A stretch of DNA of 64,000 nucleotides. Origin: Bacillota bacterium. Its GTDB lineage: Bacteria; Bacillota; Sulfobacillia; JAJZYS01; JAJZLH01. The stretch covers positions 2,571 through 66,570 of the forward strand of contig JAJZLH010000065.1 in NCBI GenBank assembly GCA_021803575.1. Direction: 5' to 3'. The notes under the pieces are model-generated. The model saw nothing but the letters and a program-made list of their open reading frames with translations. It was not told the origin of the DNA and did no database searches. Positions 6,832-55,890 of this stretch are shown piece after piece. Each line of letters opens with the position of its first letter. Position 1 is the first letter of the stretch. Position numbers and translations under genes: made by a program.

Positions 6832-7446
6832 TCACGGCGCGGCGTCCACCTGGCGGAGGCTGGGCATCACCTGCAGTGTGCCCTGGACCACCAGCGTGAA
6901 GAACTGTTCGCGCTGCCCATCCGTGACGCCGATCTGCCAGTTGCCATCAGCCGGCTGGGAAGAGGTCCAGGGCACGTACAGGACCCCCAGCTGATCGGCC
7001 CCGGTCACGGCCCAGGGCCGGGCGTTTAGAGAGGCGTAGTCGAGCACCTGGCCCTCGGCCGGCACCGAGATGCGAAACGCCGGCGGCAGGATGAAGGAGA
7101 GCGGCAGGCGGGCGCCCTGGACCAGCACCGACACCGCCTGGCCGCGCATGGCCTGGTGAGAGCCGGGTGCGATCGTCCAGTCGTCCTGAGGGCGAGGTCT
7201 GGCCACCACCGCCACCGCACGGCTGGCAAAGCCCCACTCACCCCGGTCGTCCTCCACCCACAGCGTCACGATATAGACTCCGGGGGAACCGAAGCTGCCG
7301 GCACGACCGAACCAGAGCTGGCGAATCAGGGCGTGCCCGGGGGCGGGATCGTATGAGCGGTCGATGTAGACGACGGGGCCTCCAACCAGCACCGGCGACG
7401 ACACATAGAAAGAAGCGACCGGCGGCGGGTAGTTAACCGGGCCCAT
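6832..7446 (-). CDS. hypothetical protein (205 aa), last gene of the Tad/T4SS-like operon
   Basis: Non-repetitive sequence MGPVNYPPPVASFYVSSPVLVGG...; ATG at 7444-7446 overlaps the stop of the upstream tadE-like gene. The 294-aa ORF in the track is this gene plus an out-of-frame read-through. Confidence 0.45.
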   Translation of the reverse strand: MGPVNYPPPVASFYVSSPVLVGGPVVYIDRSYDPAPGHALIRQLWFGRAGSFGSPGVYIVTLWVEDDRGEWGFASRAVAVVARPRPQDDWTIAPGSHQAMRGQAVSVLVQGARLPLSFILPPAFRISVPAEGQVLDYASLNARPWAVTGADQLGVLYVPWTSSQPADGNWQIGVTDGQREQFFTLVVQGTLQVMPSLRQVDAAP

Positions 7447-7891
7447 ACGCCACCTCCACATCGGCGGAGACCGCCTGCTGGAGGCCCATGCCGAGAAAGG
7501 AACTGGAAAAGGCCAGCTGACCGCCCAGGCCAGGCAGGGCGAAGTGGTAGCCGGTGACGGGATCGGTGGTGCCGGCGGCGTAGAGGGTGAGCGCGGGCGC
7601 TGCCGACTCGGCCAGGGCCGAGGGCAGATCAGCGGCCAGCACGGCGCGAAAGGTCTGCTTGGCCAGGGCCGGGTCGATCTGGGGGCCGAGCGGCCCGACG
7701 GGCAGGACCACCTCACTGCCGGCAGCGCGCAGGGCTGCAGAGAGAGCGGTGTAGGCCTGGAAGCGCGCCCACAGCGCCCGCTCCAGGGTGAGACCTGCTC
7801 CCAGTGCGAACATCAGGAGCAGCTCGACGAAGACGGCCAGAATGTAGATGACATGACCCTCGTCACGGCGTACCAGGTGCCACTTCCTCAC
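7433..7891 (-). CDS. TadE/TadG-like pseudopilin
   Basis: N-terminus EGHVIYILAVFVELLLMFALGAG is a TadE-like hydrophobic segment, then a soluble domain; 152 aa. Confidence 0.5.
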   Translation of the reverse strand: MRKWHLVRRDEGHVIYILAVFVELLLMFALGAGLTLERALWARFQAYTALSAALRAAGSEVVLPVGPLGPQIDPALAKQTFRAVLAADLPSALAESAAPALTLYAAGTTDPVTGYHFALPGLGGQLAFSSSFLGMGLQQAVSADVEVAYGPG

Positions 7892-8303
7892 TGTCCACTA
7901 CCTCCTGTTGGCCAAGGTGCAGGACCGTTCCGGCCAGGCCGAGCAAGGTGAAGGGGAAGCCCTGGAGGGGGATGCCAATAGCCACCGACACGGTCACGGG
8001 CTGGCCCCAGGGCACGACCGGCAGTGAGCCGGAAACCAGCGGCCGAGCAGAAATCCCGGCGTCGGCGAGGGCGCTCACCACAGCCTCAGACACCGCCGGC
8101 GTCACGCCGCCGTCCAGTGCCGCCGTCTCGGCGCCGACCTGAGCGGCGAAGGAGAGGTCGGTGGACCACTCGGCGACGCGCCAGGCGGCGAGGCCGCCGA
8201 ACAGGGTGAGCACCAGCAGTGGCAGCACCAGCGCCGTGGCGATGTAGACGTCGAGACTGCCCTCTTGCCGGGTGTGCCTACTGGCCGGTCGTGATCGGCA
8301 CAT
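7863..8303 (-). CDS. tadE: TadE-like pseudopilin
   Basis: RQEGSLDVYIATALVLPLLVLTLFGGLAAW closely matches the TadE N-terminal motif (a-LVLP-llll-fG); 146 aa. Confidence 0.6.
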   Translation of the reverse strand: MCRSRPASRHTRQEGSLDVYIATALVLPLLVLTLFGGLAAWRVAEWSTDLSFAAQVGAETAALDGGVTPAVSEAVVSALADAGISARPLVSGSLPVVPWGQPVTVSVAIGIPLQGFPFTLLGLAGTVLHLGQQEVVDSEEVAPGTP

Positions 8304-8496
8304 TCAGCCAGGCGGTGATGATGTCCCGGATGTGGGCGCCCACGGCGCTGAAGGCAAACAGAATGACCCCGGTCAGACTGACGGCAGCCAGGGCCATAAT
8401 GCCCTGTGCGATGTAGGTGGAGAGATCTCCGCGCTGGGAGCGGGCGAGGGTGGCGAGCGCCTGGCACCAGAGGCGGCCGTACGCAAACAGTGACAT
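8278..8496 (-). CDS. flp: Flp/Fap-type pilin candidate (73 aa), not present as a separate ORF in the track
   Basis: ATG at 8494-8496 overlaps the tadC stop (ATGA). Product MSLFAYGRLWCQALATLARSQRG|DLSTYIAQGIMALAAVSLTGVILFAF...: charged leader ending in G, then a ~25-aa hydrophobic helix with Tyr at +5 (class III signal-like). Confidence 0.5.
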   Translation of the reverse strand: MSLFAYGRLWCQALATLARSQRGDLSTYIAQGIMALAAVSLTGVILFAFSAVGAHIRDIITAWLNVPITTGQ

Positions 8497-9152
8497 CAGA
8501 GGATCCCCTTCCCGGGCAGAATGCCGAACTGGCGGATCAGAGCGACCAGGTGCGGGTAGCCGAACAAAATGGCGGCGTTGATCATGAACAGCCCGGCCAT
8601 CACGGTCAGGAGGTAGGGGACGAAGCCAGCCTGGCGGCGGATTCTGGAAAGGCGGGCCTGGCGCGAGATCGACTCCTGGGCTGCCATGGTCTGCCGGAGC
8701 GGGACGCCCAGCGTCTCTCCGGCACGTAGCGCCGAGATCAGGTTCTGGCCGGATGGGAAGGCGAGATCGCTGGACAGACGGGCCAGTGCGGCGGACAGAT
8801 CGGATGAGTGCAGCAGGTCGTCCCGGAACGACTTGAGCGGTGCAGCCAGGGGCCCCAGGGCGTCCGAGGGCAGGTGCAGCATGGTGGCCACGGCGCCCAG
8901 CCCGTTCTCCGCCGACATGCGCAGGAGCAGGAGGAGATCGGGGAACCAGGCCTCCATCCGCCCGAGCAGGCGCCGTCGGGCCAGGGCAGCGCTGAGCGGT
9001 GAGACACCGTAGGCAGCCAGAAGCGCCAGTGGTGTGAGGCTGGGGAAGAGCGGGGCAACCGCCATCAGGAGCCAGCCGCCCGGGTGGCGGGGCAGCCGCC
9101 TCCAGGCCAAGGCTGAGAGGGTCAGAGCGAGGGCGGCCAGATGACTCACCAT
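8496..9152 (-). CDS. tadC: TadC (type II secretion system F-domain platform protein)
   Basis: EAWFPDLLLLLRMSAENGLG...ISALRAGETLGVPLRQT...LLTVMAGLFMINAAILFGYP are T2SSF-domain signatures. Start placed at the ATG 9150-9152 with GGAG 7 nt upstream (overlaps the tadB stop); an alternative start is at 9227. Confidence 0.75.
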   Translation of the reverse strand: MVSHLAALALTLSALAWRRLPRHPGGWLLMAVAPLFPSLTPLALLAAYGVSPLSAALARRRLLGRMEAWFPDLLLLLRMSAENGLGAVATMLHLPSDALGPLAAPLKSFRDDLLHSSDLSAALARLSSDLAFPSGQNLISALRAGETLGVPLRQTMAAQESISRQARLSRIRRQAGFVPYLLTVMAGLFMINAAILFGYPHLVALIRQFGILPGKGIL

Positions 9153-9802
9153 AGGAGAGACTCCGGCTGGAAGTAGGGAGTACACAGCATGCTCGCCGTG
9201 GACAGAAGCACCCAACCGGAAAGCCACCGGCCGGCGCCTGACTGAAATAGGGAGCGTTCGGCCGGCGAGAGCAGGACGGCCGCCGCCAAGGCCAGCTCAA
9301 TCAGGAAGAAGAGGGCGGTGGCAGCTGTCAGTGCCGACTGCTCATTGCGCCACTGACCCGCCAGCTGGATGCGCTGCTCCACCTCCTGGAGGAGGATCAA
9401 TAGCGGGCGCTCCAGGCTGAGGCCGACCTGGACAGTGTCCTGGCCGAACAGTTGCCGGAGAGAGGTCTGGAGCCAGTGGGGCGCCCTGGGGTCGGACAGC
9501 AGAAACGAGGCCTCCGCGCCACCGGCGCCCAGCACCTCGTCGGGCTGGAGGGTGAGGGCGCTCATCTCGAACATCGCCTCCAGGCAGCGCTCGGTTGCAA
9601 CCAAGGTGCGACGGAGATCCCGGTTACGGCGCCAGCGGTCGAAGGCGGGCCAGGCGACGGCGCTCAGCGCCAGGGCCGGCACCAAGGTGACGGCGCCTCC
9701 CCACGTCCAGCCCAAGGCGGCGCCCAGCGGCAATAGAGCCAGCCGACGCTGGGTGATGGCCAGGGCGGAGGCGGAGAGAAGAGCGACCCACCAGATGGTC
9801 AC
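9146..9802 (-). CDS. tadB: TadB (T2SSF-domain platform protein)
   Basis: Three-TM T2SSF-like organisation (VTIWWVALLSASALA..., ...ALFFLIELALAAAVLL). GTG at 9800-9802 overlaps the cpaF stop (GTGA). The N-terminal 91 aa of the track ORF are an out-of-frame extension. Confidence 0.65.
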   Translation of the reverse strand: MTIWWVALLSASALAITQRRLALLPLGAALGWTWGGAVTLVPALALSAVAWPAFDRWRRNRDLRRTLVATERCLEAMFEMSALTLQPDEVLGAGGAEASFLLSDPRAPHWLQTSLRQLFGQDTVQVGLSLERPLLILLQEVEQRIQLAGQWRNEQSALTAATALFFLIELALAAAVLLSPAERSLFQSGAGRWLSGWVLLSTASMLCTPYFQPESLLW

Positions 9803-10806
9803 GGCCGGCCCTCCCCGGCCGCCCTCTGGCCATCGCTCCAGGCGAACTCGCCGCAGCGGTCCTCGATGGACAGGACCCGGACGCCCTCCTCGGTGCGGGA
9901 CATCAGTACCACCAGCCCGATCTCGGCGCGGAACGACTCCTCCAGGGCACTGGCGGAACTGGTGGGCAGTGCGGTCTGGGCCAGCCAGGCCAGGCGCTGG
10001 TGCACCCTGTCCGCACTGAGGGCGTGGATGGTGGCGAACGACCCGGCGTGTCCCGAGGAGAGGGCGAGCAACCACTCAAAGGCCTCCGCCCCGCGCAGCT
10101 CACCGATGCCCAGGCGATCGGGCCGCAGGTGCAGGGCGTGCCGAATGGCATCGCGGGCCGATACCGCGAAGCGGCCCTCGCGGTTGGCCGGTCTGGTCTC
10201 CAGTTCGATGACGTGCTGGTGGCATCCGACCAGGAACAGCTCGCGGACCTCTTCGACCACCACGATGCGATCGTCCGGAGGCATCTGGGACACCAGCCAG
10301 CGCAGGAGCGTCGTCTTACCGGACCCGGTCGGGCCGGCCACCAGGAATGAGCGGCGGCTATGGGCGATGGCACGCAGATGCCGCTCGGCCGTCGCATCGA
10401 ACATGCCGCGGCTGAGCAGGGCGTCCGTGGTCCACCGCTCGGGGCGGTGGATGCGGACCGAGATCGAGGGCTCCAGGGAATAGGGGGGAATGGTGAGGCC
10501 AATCCGGCAGTGGCCGAGCGTGATGGACTGGAAGGGCTGGGCCAGGGAGAGGTCGCGCCCTCCGGCTGTGGCCAGGTGAAGGGCCAGGTCGAGCGCAGCG
10601 ACCGGCGATGACAGCGTGCCAGCTGCCAGGAGGGCGTTGTCACGGCAAATCGTGATGGTGTTGCCACAGACGAAGACGTCGGAGACGGCGGGATCATCCA
10701 GAAACGGCCGCAGCGGGCCCCAGGGTGCGTCGTGCGGGCTCTCAGCGGAGGGGGCCGCCTCCCGGTTGAAGACGACTGAGCGGCTGGGGCTGCTGGCTGA
10801 TGCCAA
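9799..10806 (-). CDS. cpaF: CpaF/TadA pilus-assembly ATPase (VirB11/GspE superfamily), short form
   Basis: FLVAGPTGSGKTTLL Walker A; VVVEEVRE.. Walker B/Asp box; RPDRLGIGELRGAEAFEWL His box; 335 aa with no N-terminal accessory domain. Confidence 0.85.
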   Translation of the reverse strand: MASASSPSRSVVFNREAAPSAESPHDAPWGPLRPFLDDPAVSDVFVCGNTITICRDNALLAAGTLSSPVAALDLALHLATAGGRDLSLAQPFQSITLGHCRIGLTIPPYSLEPSISVRIHRPERWTTDALLSRGMFDATAERHLRAIAHSRRSFLVAGPTGSGKTTLLRWLVSQMPPDDRIVVVEEVRELFLVGCHQHVIELETRPANREGRFAVSARDAIRHALHLRPDRLGIGELRGAEAFEWLLALSSGHAGSFATIHALSADRVHQRLAWLAQTALPTSSASALEESFRAEIGLVVLMSRTEEGVRVLSIEDRCGEFAWSDGQRAAGEGRP

Positions 10807-11698
10807 TGGCGATCACCTCCTCGAGGCGCAGGTGGCGGAAGAGGTCACGGAACGGCGCCACGACCTGGGCCGGGAGGGGCCGGCCTGCAGCCAGGAGGTC
10901 GACTGGTGCCTGGCGCAGCCTGGGCAGGGCGAGTGCGGTTCCGGCCCCCAGCCGGCAACGACCCAGCACCTGGTTGAGGACGCACAGTCCCCCTGGGTCG
11001 GCGGGGGAGCGGGGCCGGCCGAGGGCCGGGGCGGAGAGGACGGTAACGGAGCGGCTTTGCGAAGGCTCCCACGGACCGTCGATCACACACACAGCCGGAT
11101 AGGGCGGCAGGGCCTCGCTGGAGCTGAGTAGCCTCGGCCCGCAGGCGGCTGACAGCTGGGGATGGTCGGTGAGGGACCGGGCGAGCAGGCCGTCGGCGGA
11201 CCGGTCCACCAGATAGGCCGCCATGCCCCGGGAGAGGCAGTAGAGAAACAGCCCCAGTGCCACCGTGCTCTGACCGATGCTGCCGGAGCGACGCTGGCAG
11301 GCGATCACGGTGACCGGCGGCAGGGCAGCGGCGATCAGCCGGAGCAGCGTCTCGCCGGTGAAGGCGCCGCTCAAGAGGTGCCTGACGCCAAGTTTGCGCA
11401 GGCCGATCACCGCCGCCGGGTCGCTGCGCGAGTCGGGCAGGATGTAGATGATCTGGCTGGGGGACATGTCGAGAGCCTGAACCAGTGCCAGGGGTCTCGC
11501 CGGCATGTCGGGCAGGGTGTGGCTGAGGATGAGCACATCCGGCCGGTGGGCGGCGACGGCATCAGCGACGAGGGCCGCAGACCGCACCTCGGCCACCACC
11601 TCCACCGCGCTCTGGGCATCGAGGAAGCGGCAGACGGCGTCCTGATCGAGGACACTGTGCGCCGCCACCAGCACTAAGGGACGCCCTACGAATGCCAC
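10742..11698 (-). CDS. cpaE: CpaE/TadZ-like (receiver-like N-domain plus ParA/MinD-like domain, atypical P-loop)
   Basis: N-terminal CheY-like fold (DAVAAHRPDVLILSHTLPDM) and C-terminal MinD-like region (VTVIACQRRSGSIGQSTVALGL) with a non-canonical Walker A; position between cpaB and cpaF. Confidence 0.55.
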   Translation of the reverse strand: MAFVGRPLVLVAAHSVLDQDAVCRFLDAQSAVEVVAEVRSAALVADAVAAHRPDVLILSHTLPDMPARPLALVQALDMSPSQIIYILPDSRSDPAAVIGLRKLGVRHLLSGAFTGETLLRLIAAALPPVTVIACQRRSGSIGQSTVALGLFLYCLSRGMAAYLVDRSADGLLARSLTDHPQLSAACGPRLLSSSEALPPYPAVCVIDGPWEPSQSRSVTVLSAPALGRPRSPADPGGLCVLNQVLGRCRLGAGTALALPRLRQAPVDLLAAGRPLPAQVVAPFRDLFRHLRLEEVIAIGISQQPQPLSRLQPGGGPLR

Positions 11699-12267
11699 GG
11701 CAGCACGACCACCTTTCCCCCCGCCAGGGCGTACTCCACCAATTCCGCCGCTCCCAGCGGCAGGCTGACTGAGACGAACGAGCCCTGGGCCGTGGTGAGA
11801 ACAGCAGCGACCGGTGCCCGTGCGACCAATACCTGGGGAGAGGGCGGGCCGGCCAAGAGCAGCATCACCGCCCCGTGTGCGCCGAGGCCGGGAGGGATGA
11901 TCGGCAGAGGGATCGTCACCAGCAGGGAGGACGGCGGCGGCTGGGGCTTCGGCATGTGCCTGGTCACGGCCCGGGGCGAGATCACCGTGCCCGGTGCAGC
12001 AGCTGCGATCAGGCGCCAGCCGACGGGCGGTGCGGGGAAGGTGCCGCCCGGCACGGCGGCCCCCGCCGCCAGCTCAAGCGGCAGGAGGTCCCGGGCTTCC
12101 AGGAGCGTCCCCGCCGGCAGCGGCCGGGCGGCCATCCAGACGGTGCGCCCGGACGGGGGGCCGGGCGGGAAGAGCGCCACCAGGAGAGCCGCCGCCGAGA
12201 GAATCACCGGCAGAAGGGACAAGGGCGGTCGCCAGGACCAGATCGAAGCCGGGCGAGCGGTGGTCAT
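11686..12267 (-). CDS. cpaB: CpaB/RcpC-like Flp-pilus assembly protein (TM plus SAF domain)
   Basis: ATG at 12265-12267 with GGGAGG 10 nt upstream. N-terminal TM LSLLPVILSAAALLVALF; SAF-like segment VWMAARPLPAGTLLEARDLLPLELAAGAAVPGG. Confidence 0.6.
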   Translation of the reverse strand: MTTARPASIWSWRPPLSLLPVILSAAALLVALFPPGPPSGRTVWMAARPLPAGTLLEARDLLPLELAAGAAVPGGTFPAPPVGWRLIAAAAPGTVISPRAVTRHMPKPQPPPSSLLVTIPLPIIPPGLGAHGAVMLLLAGPPSPQVLVARAPVAAVLTTAQGSFVSVSLPLGAAELVEYALAGGKVVVLPWHS

Positions 12268-12283
12268 TGGAGTGCGTACCTCC

Positions 12284-14161
12284 CTAACGCAGCGAGACAG
12301 GCGTGGTATTGGCGATCGATGACTCCAGGGCACTGAGGCTGATCGTGACCGGCCGCACGCCGCTGTCCACTAAGAGCGCCTCGCCCGGCTCGGCCAGGGA
12401 CAGCCACTGACTGGGGCGAGCCGACAGGCGGTAGCGCTGGCGGAGCATGCGGAGGTCATCAGGGCTCTGGCGGAACAGCACCAGCAGGCCGGCGTTGGCC
12501 AGCAGGAGGCCGCCGTCGTCGGAGAGCAGGAAGTCGCCGACGTTCTGGGTGACACCGGTGAAGCTGACGCCGACCTTTCTGGCCCGCTTCAACAGGGACA
12601 GGAGGCTGGATCGCACCTGGCCGTGGCGCAGGAAGAGATGCACCTCATCGAGCGTGACCGAGAGCGGATATCCCTGCTGGCGATGACTGCGCACCCAGTC
12701 TCCGACCAGTTCGATCAGGAGCGGAACGGCGGCCGAGACCGTTTCCGAGTCTGCCTGGCTCAGGTTGAAGGCGATCAGGCGGTGATCCGGAAAGCGGCGG
12801 AGGGGGGCCGAGAATCCCCTGAGCGGGCCATCCGCATAGGGCCACACCACCGGAAAGAGGGGATCGTCCGCGGGGATCCGCCCCAGCAGGTCGCGAAAGG
12901 TGGGTGCCGTGCTGTGCCGGTAGCACTCCGCCAGGAGGAGCCGGAGGCGGAGGACCTCGGCCGGGCCGAGGTTCCCTGCCAAAAGAGCCGGGATGCGCAA
13001 CAGCTTGCCCTCCACATCCCCTCGGCCGGGAGCGGCCAGGGGATTCAGCTGAGTGCCGCTGGCGCCGATCGGGATCGAGATTCCCTGCAGGTGGCGGACC
13101 AGCAGTTCGTACTCGCCTTCGGGATCAAAGACGATGGCTCTCGCATCGGACGCCTCGAGCCGTCGCAGGAGCTCGACCTTGCTAAACGTAGACTTGCCGC
13201 TTCCAGGAAGGCCCAGCACGAAGGCGGACGGATTGGTCTGCCAGCGCTGGTGCATGACCAGGCACTGGTGGTCCGAGTCAATGCCGAGGAATAGGTGTCG
13301 CTCCTGATCGGCCGCTGGGGCAGCCCACTCGTACAGGCCGAGGTGGGTGAGGGTCTGGGCGTCCAGCATGCGGAGCAGCGGCGGCTCAACCCCGAATCGC
13401 TCGCTGAACAGCCTGTGGACGCCGGCCTGCTGGAAGGGGATCGGTGCGAAGGCGAAGCCCAGGCTATGGGCAAGCTGACGAAACATGCGGAGCTCCCTAG
13501 ACGTGGGCAGACCTGGGAAAGCAGCCGCCACCGCCACCCGGAATAGACGATTGGTGCGCCCGACCAGCTGATCGAGCAGAGCCGCCGCGTCCTCAGCTGG
13601 GCGTTTATAGACGGGATCCCTGTGGACATGGGGGCCAAGCGCGCGCAGCCGGTGGCGGAGCAGCCGTGTGGCGTCGGTCACGGCCATGGGAGAGAAGTCG
13701 AACAGGAGGTCGAACCGGCCGGGGGCCGTGAACAGGGGGGCGAGCAGATCGATGGACAGTTGAGGTGGCCAGGAAGTGGCCACCAGGAAGGTGACATCAC
13801 CCTGGGAGCCGCTGATGTGGCGCAGGTGCTCTACAGCGACCGTTCCACCCGGCGCCCGAAGCAGTGGATCCGGCCGGCCAAACCGGAGGTGACGGGCCAA
13901 GGGAAGAGGCGTGAGGGCCCCCGGGGTGAGCAGGTGGAGGTCGGCGTGCCTGAGAGTGGCCGGCAGCTGGTGCCCCTCGTCGTAGAGATGGGCGAGGTGC
14001 GGCAGCTCGGATAGCTCTGTGTCACTGAGGGGCCGGGAGCGGAACCAGAACCTGAGATCGTGCGGGACGTGGAGGAGAAAGTTCAGGTCCTCTTCCTGGA
14101 AGGCAGACCGCTCATCGTCCCCAAGCCAGCGGAGGTGGACGGGGTGAACCAGCTGGCGCAT
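12284..14161 (-). CDS. VirB4/TrbE/CagE-family ATPase, short (625 aa)
   Basis: Walker A VLGLPGSGKSTF followed by AIVFDPEGEY; Walker B VTLDEVHLFL (DEAW-like); C-terminal KRARKVGVSFTGVTQN matches the VirB4 aRK..G....TQ motif; the N-terminal half resembles the VirB4 N-domain. Confidence 0.7.
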   Translation of the reverse strand: MRQLVHPVHLRWLGDDERSAFQEEDLNFLLHVPHDLRFWFRSRPLSDTELSELPHLAHLYDEGHQLPATLRHADLHLLTPGALTPLPLARHLRFGRPDPLLRAPGGTVAVEHLRHISGSQGDVTFLVATSWPPQLSIDLLAPLFTAPGRFDLLFDFSPMAVTDATRLLRHRLRALGPHVHRDPVYKRPAEDAAALLDQLVGRTNRLFRVAVAAAFPGLPTSRELRMFRQLAHSLGFAFAPIPFQQAGVHRLFSERFGVEPPLLRMLDAQTLTHLGLYEWAAPAADQERHLFLGIDSDHQCLVMHQRWQTNPSAFVLGLPGSGKSTFSKVELLRRLEASDARAIVFDPEGEYELLVRHLQGISIPIGASGTQLNPLAAPGRGDVEGKLLRIPALLAGNLGPAEVLRLRLLLAECYRHSTAPTFRDLLGRIPADDPLFPVVWPYADGPLRGFSAPLRRFPDHRLIAFNLSQADSETVSAAVPLLIELVGDWVRSHRQQGYPLSVTLDEVHLFLRHGQVRSSLLSLLKRARKVGVSFTGVTQNVGDFLLSDDGGLLLANAGLLVLFRQSPDDLRMLRQRYRLSARPSQWLSLAEPGEALLVDSGVRPVTISLSALESSIANTTPVSLR

Positions 14162-14165
14162 GCGC

Positions 14166-14480
14166 CTAGGTGCGTCGGACGAGGCGGGGTGCTACGGACC
14201 TGGCAGCCGGGCGGCGACGGAGCTGGCGGACGAGCCAGGGAGCGGCCCACATCAGCAGCGTGCGCAGGGCGAAGCCATCCACGGCGGCGAAACAGAGCAG
14301 TAGGAACGTCGCCCACAGAGCGGCGGCCAGTGCCATGGCAGCGGTGGAGCCAACGGTCAGTAGCTGGAAGGTGAGCATGGCCAGAGCAATGGCGCAGACG
14401 GCTGTCCATCCGTCCAGACCCCACAGCACAGGTTCACTCGACCGCAGCAGGTCCTGGGGGACCGGGTGGTGGGAGGGCAT
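14166..14480 (-). CDS. VirB3-like small two-TM membrane protein (104 aa)
   Basis: Directly upstream of, and 4 nt from, the VirB4-like gene, which is the canonical virB3-virB4 order. EPVLWGLDGWTAVCAIALAMLTF resembles the VirB3 P-x-x-x-G-L-T-R-P plus TM region; two hydrophobic helices. Confidence 0.4.
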   Translation of the reverse strand: MPSHHPVPQDLLRSSEPVLWGLDGWTAVCAIALAMLTFQLLTVGSTAAMALAAALWATFLLLCFAAVDGFALRTLLMWAAPWLVRQLRRRPAARSVAPRLVRRT

Positions 14481-14504
14481 AGGGGCGGCACCTCTGCTTT
14501 CGTC

Positions 14505-15257
14505 TCAAAAGTTCAGCCATTGAGCCGCCGCCGCCCACAGCGGATAGGATCGCCCGCTGCCGCTGATCAGGCGGCGGAAGAGGGCGGGAGCGCGAATCAT
14601 CAGGTAGAGGGCTGCCAGCCCGACCAGGGCGTTGGCAGGGCCTGGGCCTTCCAGTCCGGAGAGTCCCCTCGATAGCACCAGCACAAAGGCCTGCACCGTC
14701 TGAACCAATGTGACGACCACCAGTTCCTCGAAATAACGGGTGCCCACCCTGCGTGTCTCGGGCCAGGCGATCGCCATCATGCCCAGCGGCGAGATGGTGG
14801 CCAGAAACATGAGTTCGATGGCGCGGATCAGATAGACAACGGTGAGAGCGATGAGCAACAGCAGGTAGGGTAGCCACAGGACCAAGTCGGCCAGGATCTG
14901 TGTGGGCAGCGAAATGGGGCTCAGGTGGATGGCGACCCGGGCGGCGAGAGAGGCGATCAGGGCGTTGTTGAGATGAATCAGGAAGATGCAGATGCGCATG
15001 GAGAGAAGGGCCAGCACCGCCGTTAGAGCCAAAGACACCAGCAGCTTGAGCCAGTTGACGGGCGAACCGGTCATGGTGCGGGCCGCCGTGGCAAGGACCA
15101 GGATGACGGTGCACACCCCGACCAGCGACAGCGAGAAGTGCCATAGGGTGGACACGATCGGCAGCAGCCAGACGGCTGGGGTGATGGAGACCAGGGGAGC
15201 GAGGATGCCGAACACGCTCTGGAGAATGGGCTGGACCGCTGCTGCGATGAGGCTCAA
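14505..15257 (-). CDS. VirB6/TrbL-like polytopic membrane protein (250 aa, about 6 TM)
   Basis: Six predicted hydrophobic helices with no Asp/GGD prepilin-peptidase motifs; size and topology fit a VirB6/TrbL (or archaeal CedA-like) channel protein. Confidence 0.45.
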   Translation of the reverse strand: MSLIAAAVQPILQSVFGILAPLVSITPAVWLLPIVSTLWHFSLSLVGVCTVILVLATAARTMTGSPVNWLKLLVSLALTAVLALLSMRICIFLIHLNNALIASLAARVAIHLSPISLPTQILADLVLWLPYLLLLIALTVVYLIRAIELMFLATISPLGMMAIAWPETRRVGTRYFEELVVVTLVQTVQAFVLVLSRGLSGLEGPGPANALVGLAALYLMIRAPALFRRLISGSGRSYPLWAAAAQWLNF

Positions 15258-15493
15258 AAGGGTGCACCCTGTCCCGCCCAGGAGTAGACGAGGCGGACCA
15301 GGTCCTGGGCGAAGACCACCACCACCAGCCCGCCCACGACGGCCGCCAGATGGCGCCAGGCATGGCTGCGTTGAGCCGGGTTATCGCCGCTGGTCCACAG
15401 CAGGTAGCCTCCCCACAGCAAGAACAGCACGCTCGCTGTCCCCAGCCACGCCTGAACGGTGGAGATGACGTTGAGCAGGAAGTGCTGAACCAT
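15254..15493 (-). CDS. small two-helix membrane protein (79 aa), VirB2/TrbC-pilin-like candidate; first gene of the operon
   Basis: Two hydrophobic segments (TASVLFLLWGGYLLW and LAAVVGGLVVVVFA) separated by a polar loop; AAGGAG RBS 9 nt upstream; stop overlaps the next gene's start. Confidence 0.35.
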   Translation of the reverse strand: MVQHFLLNVISTVQAWLGTASVLFLLWGGYLLWTSGDNPAQRSHAWRHLAAVVGGLVVVVFAQDLVRLVYSWAGQGAPF

Positions 15494-15639
15494 GACGGTG
15501 GCTCCTTTGGCGGGTGCGGTGGACCGACGGCAGGGCCATCTGCAACATCCCTCGCCGCTGGTGCCAAGGGTGCAACGACAGGTGCCAACATCAAACCGCC
15601 CCTTCCCAGTGCTGTCTGTGCACGGGAAGGGTTCGCATG

Positions 15640-15720
15640 GGGCCAGGGCCTACCTCCCCATAAAAAAGTATAGTTTCCAGATACTGGTTATCCGTGGTGG
15701 GGGGACCGGAGTGGGCCGAT
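15640..15720 (-). promoter_or_regulatory. AT-rich patch upstream of the island operon (putative promoter region)
   Basis: ccccataaaaaagtatagtttccagatactggttatccg stands out in 70% GC DNA. On the minus strand it contains TATACT; no convincing -35 was found. Confidence 0.25.
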
Positions 15721-16694: not shown

Positions 16695-16940
16695 TACAAT
16701 CCGAATAGTGGCGATGACTGGGGAAGAGTATCGGCTGCGCAGGGTGCAGAGAGCCAGGTGGTGGTGAGAACCTGGTCCCGGCTGGCGAGAAGATGACCCT
16801 AGGAGCTGCCGTGAGGCCGGCTTGCCACCGATAGAGGGAGACGGGCCCGATGGCCCGCATAAGCCCGTCCCGGAGGGATGGGGGAAAGGGTGGTACCGCG
16901 ACTCACGTCGCCCCTGGCAGGGGCGGCGTTTTTGTTTCCT
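16695..16940 (+). promoter_or_regulatory. T-box riboswitch leader (Met specifier) with intrinsic terminator
   Basis: Stem-I AGAGAG motif (gcagagagcc); candidate specifier gagaagATGAcc; conserved T-box AAAGGGTGGTACCGCG at 16885-16900; terminator cgcccct-ggc-aggggcg followed by TTTTTGTTT at 16909-16937. Confidence 0.7.
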
Positions 16941-43810: not shown

Positions 43811-45318
43811 ACTTGCCATTGATTCGGCCGCCCGCCGTGGCGCTCAACCTGATCACGCCGGAACTGGCGCTGCTCGCCACCTCGATCCTGATCCTCTTGG
43901 TGGCTCTGTTTGACCGGCCGGGCCATGGCCACCTCCGGCTCAGCCTGATCGCCATGGCCGGCATCCTGGTGGCCGTGGTGCGCGACGGCATGCTCTTGGC
44001 AGGGGGAAGTCTGCCGGCCACCACCTTCGCTGGCACGTTGATCATGGATCCCCTGTCCGCGGTGCTGGACCTGGTCATCCTGCTTTCGGCCCTGGTGGCG
44101 GTGGTACTGGCCATGAACCGCCCGGAGGGGTCGCCTGACTACCTGGCCCTTTTGCTCTGGTCGGCCATCGGCATGATGGTGCTGGTCTCGGCCCATGACC
44201 TGATCGTGCTCTTTCTGGCGGTCGAGGTGCTGTCCTTGCCGCTCTACATCCTGTGCGCCTTCCGGCCGGACCGCCCGGCCTCCCTGGAGGCGGCGGTCAA
44301 GTACTTCCTGCTCGGCGCCTTCTCCTCCGGTTTTCTCCTCTACGGACTGGCCCTCTTGTTCGGCCTCTCCGGCGGCACCAACCTGAGCCAGGTGGCATCG
44401 GCCCTGGCCGGGGTAGGCTCGGCGCCCCTGTTCGCGCACTCGGCGGCCAGCGCCGGCGTGCTGGCCGAGGTGGCCGTGGGGCTGGTGGTGGTGGGCCTCG
44501 GCTTCAAACTGGGCGCCGTGCCGTTCCACCAGTGGGTGCCGGACGTGTACGAAGGGGCGCCCACCTCGGTCGTGACCTTCATGTCGGTGGGCACCAAGGT
44601 GGCGGCCTTCGGCGTGCTGGCCCGCCTGGTGGTGACCGTGCTTCAGGGCAGCGCCGTCGACTGGCAGAGCCTGCTCGGCGCCCTGGCGGTGGCGACCATC
44701 ATCGGCGGCGCCCTCCTGGCGCTGCCGCAGCGGAACTTCAAGCGCCTCTTGGGCTACTCCGGCATCCTGAACGCCGGCTATCTGGTGGCGGTGCTGGTGG
44801 TTGGCACCGCCGCCGCCCAGGCCGCCGGCGTCTACTTCCTCATCACCTACGCCCTGATGAATCTGGGCGCCTTCGCCGTCATCTCGGCGGTCTCAGCCGG
44901 TCATGAGGACGGCGTCATGCTGGAGCACTACCGGGGCCTCTTCTACCGGCAGCCCTGGATGGCGGTGGCGATGGCCGTGTTCTTGCTGTCCCTGGCGTCG
45001 ATCCCGCCGCTCAGCGGCTTCTTCGGCAAGCTGTTCCTCTTGGAGGCCCTGATCAGCGGCCACCAGCTGTTCCTGGCCCTCACCGTGGTGGCCGGCACCG
45101 CCGTCACCCTGATCGTGTACGGCCGTCCGCTGCTGGCCATGTTCATACCGGCCGACGCGCCCGCGGCGCCGTCCGCCCGTCCGGCGCCTGCGGTGGCGGT
45201 GGCGGTGGGCGTGCTGGCGGTGGCGGTGGTAGCGGTCGGGGTGGCACCGGGACTCCTGGTCCAGCTGGTGCACGGGGTGGCGCACAGCGGGCCCCTGGCC
45301 GGGATCAGCCGGCGCTAG
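43807..45318 (+). CDS. nuoN: NADH-quinone oxidoreductase subunit N
   Basis: Antiporter-like subunit; FLAVEVLSLPLYILCAF, GAVPFHQWVPDVYEGAPTSVV motifs. Confidence 0.9.
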   Translation: MNLPLIRPPAVALNLITPELALLATSILILLVALFDRPGHGHLRLSLIAMAGILVAVVRDGMLLAGGSLPATTFAGTLIMDPLSAVLDLVILLSALVAVVLAMNRPEGSPDYLALLLWSAIGMMVLVSAHDLIVLFLAVEVLSLPLYILCAFRPDRPASLEAAVKYFLLGAFSSGFLLYGLALLFGLSGGTNLSQVASALAGVGSAPLFAHSAASAGVLAEVAVGLVVVGLGFKLGAVPFHQWVPDVYEGAPTSVVTFMSVGTKVAAFGVLARLVVTVLQGSAVDWQSLLGALAVATIIGGALLALPQRNFKRLLGYSGILNAGYLVAVLVVGTAAAQAAGVYFLITYALMNLGAFAVISAVSAGHEDGVMLEHYRGLFYRQPWMAVAMAVFLLSLASIPPLSGFFGKLFLLEALISGHQLFLALTVVAGTAVTLIVYGRPLLAMFIPADAPAAPSARPAPAVAVAVGVLAVAVVAVGVAPGLLVQLVHGVAHSGPLAGISRR

Positions 45319-48265
45319 GAGCGGTCCCGCCGTTCTCAGCGACCGAGCGGATGGAGCCCGGTGCCTCAGCCAGGGCCTCCCGCAGCGCCTGCTCGGCGCC
45401 GCTCACCAGTAAGGCGGCCTTCCGTCCGCTGGTCGGGAAGGTGGCAAGCCCGACGCTCACCGTGAGGTCGAAGTCGGCGGCCAGGGGGCCGTGGCTGATG
45501 GCGTCCTGAAGGCGGAGGGCGAGGGCGCGGGCGGAGCGCTCCCGGGCGCCGCCGGCGATGACCGCCATGGTGTCGTCGTCCCAGCGGGCCGGAAAGTCGC
45601 CGCGCCGGCAGTGGGCGCGCACCGACCGGCCGACCTCCGCCAAAAGGCGGTCGGCGGCGGCGGCACCGAACAGCTCCCTGACTCTCGCCAGGTCTGAGAT
45701 GTGAAAGAGGAGCAGTGAGAAGGAGCGGCGGCCGCGCACGGCTTGCGCAGTGTCGCGGTCCAGCTGGTCCAGAAAGGCCTGTTGGTTGGCGAGACCGGTG
45801 GCGTGGTCGGTGAGGGCCAGCCGCCGGATCTCCTGTTCGCGCTGGTGGCGGTAGATGATCAGGCTGACCAGGCCGGAGAACACCTCCAGCATGGAGCGGA
45901 CCGGCGGCGGGAAGGCGTCCACCTTCCGGCTCTCAATGTTCAAGACCCCCTCGACGCGGCCGTCGACGATGATGGGCAGGGCCAGTTCTGAGCGCACCTC
46001 CGGGTTTCCCATCACATAGATGGGATCGGACAGCACGTTCGGCACGTAGTAGGGGAGGCCGTTTCTGGCCACCCAGGCCACCACGCCGCGGTTGCCCTGC
46101 ACCTCGACCCGGAGGTCACCGATCAGCTGCCGGGTGTAGCCGCGCTGACAGGCCACGTAGAGCTCCCGCCGCTGCTCGTCCAGGAGCAGGATGGACCCCA
46201 GCTCGGTCAGGAACAGCTCCTCCAGCGACTTGAGGATGACGTCCAACAGCCCCTGCAGGCTGCCCTCGCCAGGCGGCACGCTGAACAGCGCCTCGGTCAG
46301 GGCGCCCGGCTCCAGCCGGGACAGGATGTGACGCTGCACCGACTCCGGCTGGGGCAGGGTCGGTGCCTCGGTCTCCAGGGCGGGCGCACCGCTGGTCAGC
46401 TCCGCCTCGCTGAGGCGCAAGAACGCCTCCACCACGCCGGGGTCGAACTGCCGGCCCTGCTCCCGCACCAGCTCTGCCACGGCGTCCTGGTGGGTGAGGG
46501 GATGGCGGTAGGGCCGGATCGAGGTCATGGCGTCGTAGGAGTCGGCGACCGAGAAGATGCGGGCCAAGAGCGGGATGTTCTCGGCGGCGATGCCCTCCGG
46601 ATAGCCGGTCCCGTCGTAGCGCTCATGGTGGCAGCGCACCACGTCCAGGCTCTTGCCCAGGAAGTCGAGGTGGGAGAGCATGCGGTAGCCCAGGGTCGGG
46701 TGCGCCTGCATCACCTGGCGCTCCTCGTGGGTGAGCGGTCCCGGCTTGCTGAGAATGGCGTCTGGCACGCCGATCTTGCCGATGTCGTGCAGGTGGGCGC
46801 CCCACTCCAGATGGAGGAGGTCTTCCCGGCCCAGTCCCAGGCGGCGGCCCAGTGCCAGGGCGATGCGCACGGCCCGGTCCGAGTGGCCCATGGTGCCTGG
46901 GTCGCGCAGCCCGAGGGCGTCACCGAGGGCGGCCAGCGTGGCCGTGTAGCCGTTCCACAGGGCCTCCTGGCGCCGCTCGCTCTCCACCTGCAGGGCGGTG
47001 AGCTGGGTGAGCTGCTGCAGGGTGCGGGCCCGGGCGTAAGCGCCGGCCAGGGCCAGGGCCGTCTGCTCGGCGGCCAGGGTGAGGAGGGTGGCCTCCGAGC
47101 TTCCGTAGGCGACTGGCGGCCTGGCGGCCGCCACCACCACGCCCAAGAGCTGATCGGCCATGCGCATCGGACTGACCAGGAGGCTCTGGGCGCCGGTCTT
47201 GGCCAAGGCCGGCGGCACGGGCCAGGGGGCCGCCGTGACCGACGGCAAAAGGAGCGTCTCCCGGCCCCGGGCGGCTGTGGCGATGGCATCCTGTGCGGTG
47301 GCCAGTCTGATCTCGTTCAGGGCCTGGGGCCACTGGTGGCCCACGCCGACCGAGAGCGAGAGCATCTCCTCGTCCGGGGTGTAGACGGCCACGAAGTCAG
47401 CCGGCAGCACCGGCGCCAGCATCTGGACCAGGGCCTGGGCGATGTCGCCGGGCTGCTCCAGAGCGAGCAAGCGCGCGCTGAAGGCGGAGAGGGCGTCGGT
47501 CCGGTCGGTGCGGCGCGGCGTGACCGGCGCCAGCAGAGCGGTGTCGTCGACGATGGCGCCGAGGAGGGCCGAGACCCGCCGCACCGTCTCCGCCTCGAGC
47601 GGCGTCACCAGGCGCTCTTCGGCGAAGGCCAAGGAAAGCAGGCCCACCGGCCGGCCCAGGCTGAGCAAGGTACCGCTCAGGTGCCAGGACAGGGACGAGG
47701 CGTGCCCGGGACCCTGGTCCAGCCGCTCGCAGGTCTCCACCCGGCGGCCCGAGGCCAAGACGCCCTGGTCCAGCTGGTGCTGGCACCAGCACGGCGACCA
47801 GGTGAGGGCGGCCTGCCCGTGGGCGGCCAGCGCCTTCGGCAGCTGCCAGCTGGCTAGCAGGACAAAACTGGCGTCCGAACGCCGGCCGTGGATCCAGCCG
47901 GCGTCGGCGCCCATGGCGGTCCCCAGTCTGGCCAAAAAGCGCTCCGCCACGGCGGCGGCATCTGTGCCCTGCATCACCTCGTCCGCCAAATCGGCGAGAA
48001 GGCCGCGAGCCTTGGCCGGCGTCAGGTGGGACAGCGTGATGATGATCCCTCCGAACGACCGGGGTAGGAGGAGATGCGCAGCGACGGTATCGGCGAGGTC
48101 GAATGGGTGCGGTGTTCGACGCCGGGCCACCACATCCTTGTGCCGGCAGTAACAGGGAGGGCGGCGGCGGTCGGCGAAGGGGCTGGGCCGAGAGTGAGGG
48201 GGTCGAGCGGTGCCCAGACACTTCCTGAGAGGCGCCTTTTTGCTCGCCCTAGCCGGGTTCCTCAC
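45305..48265 (-). CDS. multidomain c-di-GMP signalling protein: GAF domains, HD-GYP phosphodiesterase, C-terminal degenerate GGDEF
   Basis: HD-GYP core HLHDIGKIGVPDAILSKPGPLT...HHERYDGTGYPEG; GAF-like blocks; C-terminal GGDEF-fold region where the GG(D/E)EF motif reads RWDDDTMAVIAGG. The first ~60 aa of the track ORF are low-complexity, so the true start is probably downstream. Confidence 0.7.
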   Translation of the reverse strand: MRNPARASKKAPLRKCLGTARPPHSRPSPFADRRRPPCYCRHKDVVARRRTPHPFDLADTVAAHLLLPRSFGGIIITLSHLTPAKARGLLADLADEVMQGTDAAAVAERFLARLGTAMGADAGWIHGRRSDASFVLLASWQLPKALAAHGQAALTWSPCWCQHQLDQGVLASGRRVETCERLDQGPGHASSLSWHLSGTLLSLGRPVGLLSLAFAEERLVTPLEAETVRRVSALLGAIVDDTALLAPVTPRRTDRTDALSAFSARLLALEQPGDIAQALVQMLAPVLPADFVAVYTPDEEMLSLSVGVGHQWPQALNEIRLATAQDAIATAARGRETLLLPSVTAAPWPVPPALAKTGAQSLLVSPMRMADQLLGVVVAAARPPVAYGSSEATLLTLAAEQTALALAGAYARARTLQQLTQLTALQVESERRQEALWNGYTATLAALGDALGLRDPGTMGHSDRAVRIALALGRRLGLGREDLLHLEWGAHLHDIGKIGVPDAILSKPGPLTHEERQVMQAHPTLGYRMLSHLDFLGKSLDVVRCHHERYDGTGYPEGIAAENIPLLARIFSVADSYDAMTSIRPYRHPLTHQDAVAELVREQGRQFDPGVVEAFLRLSEAELTSGAPALETEAPTLPQPESVQRHILSRLEPGALTEALFSVPPGEGSLQGLLDVILKSLEELFLTELGSILLLDEQRRELYVACQRGYTRQLIGDLRVEVQGNRGVVAWVARNGLPYYVPNVLSDPIYVMGNPEVRSELALPIIVDGRVEGVLNIESRKVDAFPPPVRSMLEVFSGLVSLIIYRHQREQEIRRLALTDHATGLANQQAFLDQLDRDTAQAVRGRRSFSLLLFHISDLARVRELFGAAAADRLLAEVGRSVRAHCRRGDFPARWDDDTMAVIAGGARERSARALALRLQDAISHGPLAADFDLTVSVGLATFPTSGRKAALLVSGAEQALREALAEAPGSIRSVAENGGTAPSAG

Positions 48266-55016: not shown

Positions 55017-55038
55017 CGGTTGTTCGCCTCCTGGGGAT

Positions 55039-55890
55039 TCAGGCAGGGTGGCTCCGGCTTGGGCCGAGGAAGCGGTCCAGGTGGTGAGCCACTTCCTCCG
55101 CCATCTCCCAGTGGAAGAGGTGGCTGGACCTGGGGCCCCGGAGCAGATGGTGCTGGGCGCCGGGGATGAGGGCGGCCACCTCCTCACCATACACCGAGCG
55201 AATCATCAGGTCATGCTCGCCGGATAGCACCAGCGCCGGTAGCTCAAGGGCGCTGAGGCGGGAGGCGGTGTCGTGGTCCTGGCCGATCGTGAGCTGGCGG
55301 CCAAGCTCACCCGAGGGAAGCGCCCGCCGGCCGGTGAACATGCCGCGCAAGAGCCCTCGCCGGTTCTGGTCATCGTTCAAGAAGGGGCGCGAGGCGATCA
55401 GGTAGAGCAGGGCCGGGCCGTACAGCTCCGGATCCCCACTGGCGACGATACCCTGGGTGAGGCGGAACTGCAGGGCCAGGTAGGGATCAGTCCGGGCCCA
55501 GGTGGCGAGCAGCACCAGGTGCGAGAAGCGCCCGGGCCGGCTGAGCGCCATCTCCTGCGCCACGGCCGAACCCAGGGACTGACCCAGCAGCACGGCCGGA
55601 CCTTCCCCCAGCTGGTCCAAGACGGCCAGGGCATCCTGGGCCAGATCAAGGACACCGGAGGCGGGAGGGCCTGGATCGGAGCCGCCCACACCGCGGGCGT
55701 TCAGCACCCAGACGGCGAAGCCCCGGCCGGCCAGGTGCCTGGCCTGCAGGGACAGGCTCAGATGGTCGGCGCCGGCCCCCGGCAAGAGGACGGCCAGAGG
55801 CCGGCCCGACGCGCCCCAGCGGGCCGCCATCAGGCGACGGCCCTCTACCTGAAAGGGGATGAGCTCGTAGCTCTCAGCCGAGGAACTCAA
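55039..55890 (-). CDS. alpha/beta-hydrolase fold protein
   Basis: LAVLLPGAGADHLS...LLGQSLGSAVAQE (GxSxG nucleophile elbow)...GEHDLMIR; TTG 55888-55890 overlaps the stop of the upstream ocd-like gene. The track ORF N-terminal extension is out of frame. Confidence 0.6.
   Translation of the reverse strand: MSSSAESYELIPFQVEGRRLMAARWGASGRPLAVLLPGAGADHLSLSLQARHLAGRGFAVWVLNARGVGGSDPGPPASGVLDLAQDALAVLDQLGEGPAVLLGQSLGSAVAQEMALSRPGRFSHLVLLATWARTDPYLALQFRLTQGIVASGDPELYGPALLYLIASRPFLNDDQNRRGLLRGMFTGRRALPSGELGRQLTIGQDHDTASRLSALELPALVLSGEHDLMIRSVYGEEVAALIPGAQHHLLRGPRSSHLFHWEMAEEVAHHLDRFLGPSRSHPA

Follow-up and report, generated by a model that had tools for sequence, protein, structure and literature searches.

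The 64,000-nt window examined here, which is the whole stretch of DNA analysed and comes from contig JAJZLH010000065.1 of a Bacillota bacterium, has a G+C content of ~69% and contains an operon in which the core of a type IV secretion system (T4SS) is joined to a Tad pilus system. The operon comprises 13 genes on the minus strand, from position 15493 to 6832, and its neighbouring genes overlap or are separated by at most 24 nt. The first four genes, at 12284-15493, are T4SS-like; the other nine are of Tad type and encode a CpaB-like protein, a TadZ-like protein, a TadA/CpaF ATPase, two T2SSF platform proteins, a Flp-like pilin, two TadE-like proteins and a protein with two Ig-like domains (Table 1). 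The stop codon of the VirB4 gene, the last of the T4SS-like set, is separated by 16 nt from the start of the CpaB-like gene. We treat the 13 genes as a single operon because of these overlaps and short gaps, and because terminator-like sites within them showed no excess over shuffled sequence in a consensus scan whose hits were at chance level. An initial annotation of this DNA had described the first four open reading frames (ORFs) as a minimal VirB2/VirB6/VirB3/VirB4 set wired to a Tad ATPase and platform and resembling the archaeal Ced DNA-import core. The four ORFs and the quoted ATPase motifs were confirmed on the minus strand, and the link to the Tad genes proved to be membership of the same operon, which recurs, as far as the contigs reach, in all nine independent loci described below.

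The 625-aa ATPase was placed in the VirB4 family by sequence and structural comparison. Its translation holds the motifs GLPGSGKST, IVFDPEGEY, VTLDEVHLF and ARKVGV...TQN, which are invariant or nearly so in eight homologues. The match to the NCBIfam model for CD1110-family VirB4 (E 9e-40) reaches 137 bits against an equivalog cut-off of 325 bits, and the protein is best described as a divergent member of the family. The solved structure of a VirB4 C-terminal domain from Thermoanaerobacter (4AG5) matches with E 7.6e-20, and hhalign aligns the protein with VirB4 of integrative and conjugative elements (ICEs) at a probability of 99.7-99.8%, from residue 124 or 140 to ~599. This alignment begins well upstream of Walker A (~317) and covers part of the VirB4 N-terminal domain. 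Profile matches in 1.84 billion proteins mostly begin at query position ~100-130, and the first ~100 residues had no detectable counterpart in the hhalign and profile searches. An AlphaFold2 model from the eight-sequence alignment was weak (pLDDT 54.7) and was used for Foldseek ranking only; full-length TrwK/VirB4 of R388 ranked first over ~645 columns (E 2e-13, TM-scores ~0.3), ahead of HerA. The VirB4 N-terminal domain, on which the initial annotation had made its assignment depend, was accordingly found by both hhalign and Foldseek.

The three membrane proteins encoded upstream of VirB4 also fall into T4SS families. The 79-aa pilin scores above the Pfam cut-offs for both T4SS_pilin (33.0 bits, cut-off 26.6) and TrbC/VirB2 (31.2 bits, cut-off 27.9), with hydrophobic helices at residues ~14-33 and ~48-68 around the basic loop TSGDNPAQRSHAWRH. 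ICE pilins align with it but carry ~18 extra residues at the N-terminus, corresponding to a leader. The 250-aa protein scores 38.3 bits with Pfam TrbL_4 (cut-off 27) and E 1.8e-3 with TrbL, has about six hydrophobic segments in a hydropathy scan, and is 25% identical to the TrbL of an ICE module (L018). Searched as profiles, neither the pilin nor the TrbL-type protein matched any solved structure, conjugative pilin or VirB6, at E up to 10. The 104-aa protein is probably PrgI/VirB3-like and is the weakest of the four assignments, being under the curated thresholds: Pfam PrgI is below its cut-off in five of six family members (best E 0.0054). An hhalign comparison with the PrgI of a more distant ICE (L005) gave a probability of 92.5% and E 5e-7 over 92 columns, and the protein matches the N-terminus of the NCBIfam SCO6880 family (E 2.2e-5). 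Its gene lies directly upstream of virB4, as in ICEs, and its size and two hydrophobic segments fit PrgI/VirB3. The VirB2-, VirB6-, VirB3/PrgI- and VirB4-like identities proposed initially were upheld in this way by Pfam, NCBIfam, a Protein Data Bank profile and hhalign.

The nine Tad-type genes include one for a secretion ATPase of the TadA/CpaF family. TadA scores 113 bits with Pfam T2SSE and 219 bits with TIGR03819 (cut-off 373), compared with 135 bits for VirB11, and is 33-38% identical to annotated CpaF proteins. A role for this ATPase as a stand-in for VirB11 was considered and rejected as the main reading for the window, on these scores and on the presence beside TadA of platform, TadZ, CpaB and pilin-like genes. 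The CpaB-like protein has one hydrophobic segment; its matches to Pfam SAF (E 2.6e-3) and to NCBIfam CpaB (E 0.022) fall short of the cut-offs. The 310-aa protein gave weak Response_reg matches only, in Pfam and NCBIfam, and its place between CpaB and TadA together with its domain layout suggests that it is TadZ-like. An alignment of six orthologues of the 72-aa Flp-like protein shows the conserved motif (R/K)G|DLS(T/A)Y along with a short basic leader and a single hydrophobic helix; the protein matches neither the Pfam Flp nor the DUF4244 model. No signal peptide or membrane anchor was seen in the 204-aa Ig-like protein that ends the operon. There is no secretin among the operon genes, as expected for a monoderm.

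Table 1. Features of the operon and its surroundings in the window, and of similar clusters in low-G+C Bacillota
Feature	Length (aa)	Positions	Strand	Basis
VirB2/TrbC-type T4SS pilin	79	15254-15493	-	Pfam T4SS_pilin and TrbC above cut-off
TrbL/VirB6-type polytopic membrane protein	250	14505-15257	-	Pfam TrbL_4 above cut-off
PrgI/VirB3-like protein (probable), two transmembrane segments	104	14166-14480	-	Sub-threshold Pfam PrgI, hhalign, position
VirB4-family ATPase (divergent)	625	12284-14161	-	NCBIfam, Protein Data Bank profile, hhalign, Foldseek
CpaB/RcpC-like protein, N-terminal membrane anchor and SAF-like domain	193	11686-12267 (ORF open to 12333)	-	Weak matches
TadZ/CpaE-like protein (putative), receiver-like N-terminal and degenerate ParA/MinD-like domain	310	10742-11674	-	Layout and position
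TadA/CpaF-family secretion ATPase	335	9799-10806	-	Pfam T2SSE, NCBIfam TIGR03819
TadB-like platform protein	218	9146-9802	-	Position, membrane segments, conservation; no Pfam match for window copy
TadC-like platform protein, T2SSF domain	218	8496-9152	-	Pfam T2SSF 24.6 bits (cut-off 25.2)
Flp-like candidate pilin	72	8278-8496	-	Sequence features and position
TadE-like pseudopilin	146	7863-8303	-	Pfam TadE E 0.0046 (under cut-off), N-terminal hydrophobic helix, conserved
Second TadE/TadF-like protein	152	7433-7891	-	N-terminal hydrophobic helix, conserved; no family match
Two tandem Ig-like beta-sandwich domains, last operon gene, operon-specific	204	6832-7446	-	
Putative promoter and 5' leader		15600-15690	-	Read directly from sequence
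T-box leader before metG		16705-16900	+	Rfam 48 bits, match cut by end of searched stretch
Low-G+C cluster L013		L013:7738-14309		
Low-G+C cluster L014		L014:867-7281		
Low-G+C cluster L015		L015:8863-15082		
Low-G+C cluster L016		L016:8781-15173		
Low-G+C cluster L041		L041:~9300-13500		VirB4 and TadA matches only

The operon defines a small and sharply bounded family. Close homologues of the VirB4 protein number just eight in a set of 5.8 billion clustered proteins, and an exhaustive HMMER search of 1.84 billion representatives recovered the family as three 50%-identity clusters at 873-1051 bits; the next match falls to 261 bits, and ordinary VirB4 proteins continue from there without a break. 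Of 185,579 species-representative genomes, only two, each labelled 'MAG: Bacillota bacterium' (MAG, metagenome-assembled genome), contain a close relative (66-67% identity), and one relative was labelled 'Sulfobacillus sp.' by its source. TadA shows a comparable boundary, with ten clusters at 49-94% identity and then a drop from 296 to 167 bits; the nearest TadA outside the family belongs to an ordinary actinobacterial Tad locus next to topA, without VirB4. The lineage as a whole is rare and uncultivated.

Nine independent loci could be compared, comprising the window's own sequence (L001) and L002, L003, L004, L007, L008, L020, L021 and L022. The initial annotation had suggested looking for its four-gene cassette in relatives, and what was found there is the whole hybrid T4SS and Tad operon, in nine of nine loci as far as the contigs reach and down to 41% VirB4 identity. 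The CpaB-like and TadZ-like proteins are conserved in all family loci, and TadA and the TadB-like and TadC-like proteins are conserved as well. Every flank that was sequenced is abrB or metG (both flanks in five loci, one in the other four). Within what can be seen, neither half of the operon occurs alone.

The operon is under purifying selection. Ratios of nonsynonymous to synonymous substitution (dN/dS) were estimated by the Nei-Gojobori method between the window and three relatives, for which synonymous sites are near saturation (pS 0.44-0.71), and lie at 0.02-0.36 across all 13 operon genes. The VirB2-type pilin is the most constrained protein of the region, with dN/dS of 0.017-0.031 compared with 0.12 for metG and 0.09-0.11 for abrB. 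It remains 95-96% identical where VirB4 is 66-67% identical, and 77-82% identical where VirB4 has fallen to 41-44%. On this evidence the pilin is in use, and a decaying remnant is ruled out. Conservation as extreme as this is unusual for a pilin.

A further gene is associated with the operon in part of the family. In three deep-branching relatives a gene for a single-stranded DNA-binding protein (SSB) lies upstream of the pilin gene (L003, 8324-8671; L004, 8316-8660; L020, 7071-7442), with a gap of 4 nt in L003 and L004, the two with called genes. These proteins are 114-115 aa long, have no obvious acidic C-terminal tail, and are 28% identical to the SSB of an ICE module represented by L018 and L019. 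The gene is absent from the window and its closest relatives, having been lost in the window's subclade.

The closest outgroups of the family VirB4 point to the origin of the T4SS half. They are mobile-element modules with the same gene order, T4SS_pilin - TrbL - PrgI - VirB4, and VirB4 proteins of 548-602 aa. In L018 and L019 a 602-aa VirB4 is followed by an SSB, a FtsK/SpoIIIE-type translocase and, further on, an integrase; in L017 a coupling protein and a Replic_Relax relaxase come after a VirB4 of 548 aa. The more distant Firmicute ICE of L005 has the order Maff2 - TrbL_2 - PrgI - VirB4 together with a coupling protein, an NlpC/P60 protein and a relaxase. Judged by these modules, the four-gene set is the usual core of one class of Gram-positive conjugation modules. 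Short length had been read initially as a Ced-like trait of the ATPase; with ICE VirB4 proteins equally short, it does not serve as a Ced signature.

Genes for self-transfer were sought across the whole window. The coupling protein, FtsK-type translocase, relaxase, integrase and NlpC/P60 hydrolase were not found in the 64 kb, either by tblastn with ICE queries, which returned P-loop noise only, or by Pfam on large ORFs, in agreement with the initial statement that no coupling protein or relaxase lies nearby. Likewise, no mobile-element genes were found in the window. Since the nearest ICE modules carry either a coupling protein and a relaxase or an SSB, a FtsK-type translocase and an integrase, we interpret the minimal state of the operon as secondary loss from a conjugative ancestor. 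The genes lost are those for the coupling protein, relaxase, integrase and wall hydrolase. Two features record the passage from ICE to chromosome: the pilin of the family has shed the ~18-residue N-terminal leader of ICE pilins, and the SSB gene has been kept in L003, L004 and L020. A search of a plasmid collection returned VirB4 proteins 24-30% identical on ordinary Gram-positive conjugative plasmids, together with ordinary CpaF, and no hybrid was seen among them, the Cutibacterium matches (31-kb elements) not having been examined for Tad genes. Taken together, the composition of the operon, its ICE ancestry, its fixed abrB-metG site, its vertical inheritance and the purifying selection acting on it in a small Bacillota lineage form a description in which we have high confidence.

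Compared with the Gram-positive ICE and plasmid modules, the operon shares four homologous proteins in the same order and a short VirB4, and the SSB gene of one such module recurs at the head of the operon in the three relatives. Those modules differ in being mobile, with an integrase, a relaxase, either a coupling protein or an FtsK-type translocase and frequently NlpC/P60. None of these is present in the window; the operon here occupies a fixed site and has a leaderless pilin and nine Tad-type genes downstream. Ordinary Tad/Flp pili provide the other half of the comparison: CpaF/TadA, two T2SSF proteins, TadZ- and CpaB-like proteins, small pilin or pseudopilin candidates and the lack of a secretin are all shared. 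In contrast, VirB4 is absent from the nearest ordinary Tad loci; the operon, for its part, has a short TadA in a clade of its own, a pilin that the Flp and DUF4244 models do not recognise, and no gene for a prepilin peptidase. Tad systems belong to the same branch of type IV filaments as archaeal pili (PMC6668835), and in Micrococcus luteus Tad-dependent transformation pili show that Tad pili can serve DNA uptake in a Gram-positive organism (PMC8467076).

Likeness to the archaeal Ced system, proposed in the initial annotation, holds at the level of architecture and lifestyle and is not supported at the level of descent. The Ced system of Sulfolobales is chromosomal and relaxase-less, imports DNA, and depends on separate Ups type IV pili for cell contact (PMC9905601, PMC11868833). 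With Ups counted in, the analogy is closer than the initial annotation had noted, the two functions here being placed, on the preferred reading below, in one operon. Ced/Ted and the operon here have in common a chromosomal, relaxase-less set of a VirB2-like pilin, a VirB6-like channel, a small two-helix protein and a VirB4-like ATPase, with a type IV filament as partner. No specific sequence relationship was found, however, and the origin here is an independent one from bacterial ICEs. In Ced the domain is split between CedB and CedD and the pilus genes lie at a separate locus, whereas the operon has a single VirB4 with a contiguous N-terminal region and carries its pilus genes itself. Descent of the operon from Ced/Ted by horizontal transfer from Crenarchaeota, as a true orthologue, has been largely refuted and is very improbable. 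It would account for the same inventory of pilin, polytopic protein, small two-helix protein and ~600-aa VirB4-like ATPase, and for the leaderless pilin, which is also reported for CedA1 (PMC9905601). However, the CedB model NF041017 reaches only 17 bits (E 1.8e-3, cut-off 700) and does so over the shared P-loop region, compared with the 137 bits of CD1110 VirB4; the gene order is exactly that of the bacterial ICE modules to which the operon is most closely related; its VirB3-like protein belongs to the PrgI type; and the pilin and TrbL profiles, which match no solved structure, are placed by Pfam in the bacterial T4SS_pilin/TrbC and TrbL_4 families.

Other systems resemble the operon in part. 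ComB of Helicobacter pylori is a DNA-import T4SS without relaxase or coupling protein that uses a VirB4 homologue as ATPase (PMC13395361); it differs in being a diderm system with an outer-membrane core (ComB7-10), no Tad partner and no close sequence relationship to the operon. The T4SS of Patescibacteria is of monoderm type with VirB2-like pilins, PrgI/VirB3, VirB6 and VirB4, is chromosomal, mostly relaxase-less and thought to be co-opted, and type IV pili are important to it (PMC12102498, PMC12857230). It often includes VirB8-, VirB1- and coupling-protein-like parts and arrays of highly variable pilins (PMC12102498, PMC12857230), whereas the operon here has one nearly invariant pilin, none of the extra components and a direct fusion with Tad. 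The R64 thin pilus (IncI) and PAPI-1 of Pseudomonas also encode a type IV filament and a T4SS together, the pilus giving contact for DNA transfer, but these are type IVb pili on diderm mobile elements with relaxase and coupling protein, while the present system is of Tad (type IVc) kind on a Bacillota chromosome and has neither (PMC12857230). A literature search gave no description of a T4SS core fused to a Tad operon, and Tad is unmentioned in PMC12102498 and PMC12857230 by term search. A domesticated, relaxase-less T4SS and T4SS-pilus hybrid is here first seen as a Tad fusion in a Bacillota chromosome.

The reading that we prefer is that the ICE-derived core and the Tad system work together in DNA uptake or exchange. 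TadA, the TadB/C pair, TadZ and the CpaB-like protein would build a Flp-type filament through the cell wall, and this filament would hold a partner cell or capture DNA. VirB4 would dock on PrgI and TrbL and, with the VirB2-type pilin, build and energise a membrane channel through which single-stranded DNA could cross the cytoplasmic membrane. In lineages that keep the SSB gene, the operon-encoded protein would coat the incoming single strand. DNA is favoured as the cargo because of the ICE ancestry and the SSB gene in part of the family, and import or host-controlled exchange of chromosomal DNA is favoured since a relaxase and a coupling protein, which would choose an element's own DNA and push it out, are both absent. 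The operon would then operate as Ced with Ups does in Sulfolobales, or as ComB does in Helicobacter, and unlike plasmid conjugation. The DNA uptake or cell-to-cell transfer suggested in the initial annotation stays a reasonable proposal, one that we infer from these features, and we hold the reading as a whole tentatively, giving it somewhat less than an even chance. Its most specific form, a bacterial counterpart of archaeal Ced and Ups in which Tad supplies the contact and VirB2, VirB3, VirB4 and VirB6 the channel, with no relaxase, coupling protein or ComEC-type channel, arisen independently in Bacillota, we regard as doubtful.

Several points weigh against this preferred reading. No gene of the operon encodes a DNA-binding protein, a nuclease, a ComEA/ComEC-like protein or a relaxase, and a tblastn search with an ICE-derived query found no SSB in the 64-kb window. 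The operon also has no gene for a prepilin peptidase, and the Flp, TadE, TadZ and CpaB assignments depend on sub-threshold matches or on position. Inheritance of both halves together from a single ancestral fusion amounts to one evolutionary event, and every member of the family is metagenome-assembled sequence. In Patescibacteria, moreover, a chromosomal relaxase-less T4SS may serve a function unrelated to DNA (PMC12102498).

Of the competing explanations, the one we take most seriously, although we judge it unlikely, is that the operon encodes an attachment or aggregation organelle only. It would produce one or two filaments, Flp-type and VirB2-type, for mineral adhesion or biofilm formation, with VirB4, VirB3 and VirB6 acting as a pilus-assembly motor and no nucleic acid being moved. 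Tad pili are well known as organelles of adhesion and this TadA belongs to the CpaF family, the two Ig-like domains of the last gene have a fold typical of surface proteins, extreme constraint is what a packed filament subunit would be expected to show, and the window's operon is without a DNA-handling gene. This explanation must, however, accommodate an SSB gene that heads the operon in three deep-branching relatives and a T4SS half derived from DNA-transferring ICE modules, and there is no evident reason why adhesion alone should keep a second filament system translationally coupled to Tad. Contact-dependent delivery or acquisition of proteins or other macromolecules, in the manner of Patescibacteria or of bacteria-killing T4SSs and with the Tad pilus giving contact, is decidedly improbable. 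The absence of relaxase and coupling protein from the window would suit it, as would the Patescibacteria precedent, where type IV pili are needed too and chromosomal relaxase-less monoderm-type T4SSs are thought to be co-opted beyond conjugation (PMC12102498, PMC12857230). Yet genes resembling those for effectors, immunity proteins or toxins are absent from the operon and from its immediate neighbourhood, the missing coupling protein is needed by most effector-translocating T4SSs (PMC12102498), the pilin is invariant and not diversified in arrays as in Patescibacteria (PMC12102498), and some relatives carry SSB.

Two further explanations concern the status of the locus as a genetic element. 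A decaying remnant of a conjugative element beside an unrelated Tad locus would explain the missing coupling protein, relaxase, integrase and hydrolase, and a GC3 (G+C content at third codon positions) somewhat below that of neighbouring housekeeping genes, but it is contradicted by 13 genes intact in every locus as far as the contigs reach, down to 41% VirB4 identity, by dN/dS of 0.02-0.36 at saturated synonymous sites, by the tight packing across the T4SS/Tad junction and by the same chromosomal site in every lineage; we give it very little credence. A currently mobile ICE or plasmid with its relaxase and coupling protein outside the window, which is conceivable in that these genes can be far from virB4 (PMC12102498), is rejected as the least probable of all: core housekeeping genes (rsmI-abrB and metG-tatD-ksgA) form the flanks wherever these were sequenced, no integrase or repeat boundary was seen, and the site never varies.

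Conjugation machines are regarded as a property of mobile elements, and host-owned derivatives are few, namely Ced/Ted, ComB of Helicobacter and the system of Patescibacteria. The operon adds a clean Bacillota case that is chromosomally fixed, without self-transfer genes, under strong purifying selection and, uniquely, in one operon with Tad. If DNA is moved, the operon would represent a new natural route of gene exchange in Gram-positives and a minimal model of a VirB4/VirB6 channel across a single membrane; if DNA is not moved, a T4SS core would have been re-used as part of a pilus organelle. Should the correspondence to Ced and Ups hold, bacteria would have domesticated conjugation machinery convergently for the exchange of host DNA, and would have done so within one operon. 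Outside Patescibacteria, according to a recent review, Gram-positive T4SSs have no VirB2 (PMC12857230); the operon here sets against this a nearly invariant VirB2-type pilin.

A possible second instance of this pairing was found in Bacillota MAGs of 23-26% G+C, where five loci (L013-L016 and L041), one of them from Clostridium sp. CAG:1219, match both the VirB4 and the TadA queries. In L013-L016 the VirB4 precedes a ParA-like protein, an ATPase of VirB11/TadA-like type for which the VirB11 model is the better match, and a T2SSF-like membrane protein; genes for a pilin, TrbL or PrgI were not visible near VirB4 in these four. The L014 cluster lies a few genes from rpsB, and the VirB4 of L013 is split into parts of 187 and 599 aa, both matching the Mbov_0397 VirB4 model. 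These clusters suggest that VirB4 may have been paired on more than one occasion with a Tad/VirB11-type motor in the chromosomes of monoderms.

The region upstream of the pilin gene contains a palindrome, CCAGTATCTGG, at 15687-15677, adjoining a -10-like TATACT at 15672-15667, and a leader of ~175 nt with a putative hairpin, CCCTTCCCGTGC...GCACTGGGAAGGG, at 15631-15600. The palindrome, -10-like and hairpin motifs are kept in three relatives, and the palindrome and leader could be a candidate operator and regulatory leader of the operon. RNAalifold, applied to four close sequences only, indicated few compensatory changes in the leader hairpin. Rfam gave no family in the operon or leader, and the promoter consensus scan, at chance level overall, did not call the putative operon promoter.

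The operon is flanked by rsmI-abrB on one side and metG-tatD-ksgA on the other, a conserved Bacillota order of core housekeeping genes, and in the window and its closest relatives a redoxin-like and a glyoxalase gene sit between metG and the operon. The rest of the window, as read by Pfam on large ORFs, is devoted to core metabolism and information processing, with gltX, glmU, prs, mfd, nuo genes, a GGDEF/HD-GYP protein, an SLH protein and an MFS transporter. The GC3 of the operon genes is 0.76-0.86, compared with 0.87-0.92 for the neighbouring housekeeping genes, a difference that fits either foreign origin or low expression.

Two other genes of the window bear on the cell in which the operon resides. 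At 45305-48280 on the minus strand lies a gene for a large protein with the order GAF-HD(HD-GYP-like)-GAF-GGDEF, from which cyclic di-GMP signalling is present in the organism; cyclic di-GMP is a common regulator of Tad and type IV pili. At 53025-55202, also on the minus strand, a 725-aa protein has a C-terminal SLH domain and a weak CAP-domain match (27.9 bits, with no separately significant stretch). The SLH protein points to an S-layer-type envelope, which any pilus produced from the operon must cross.

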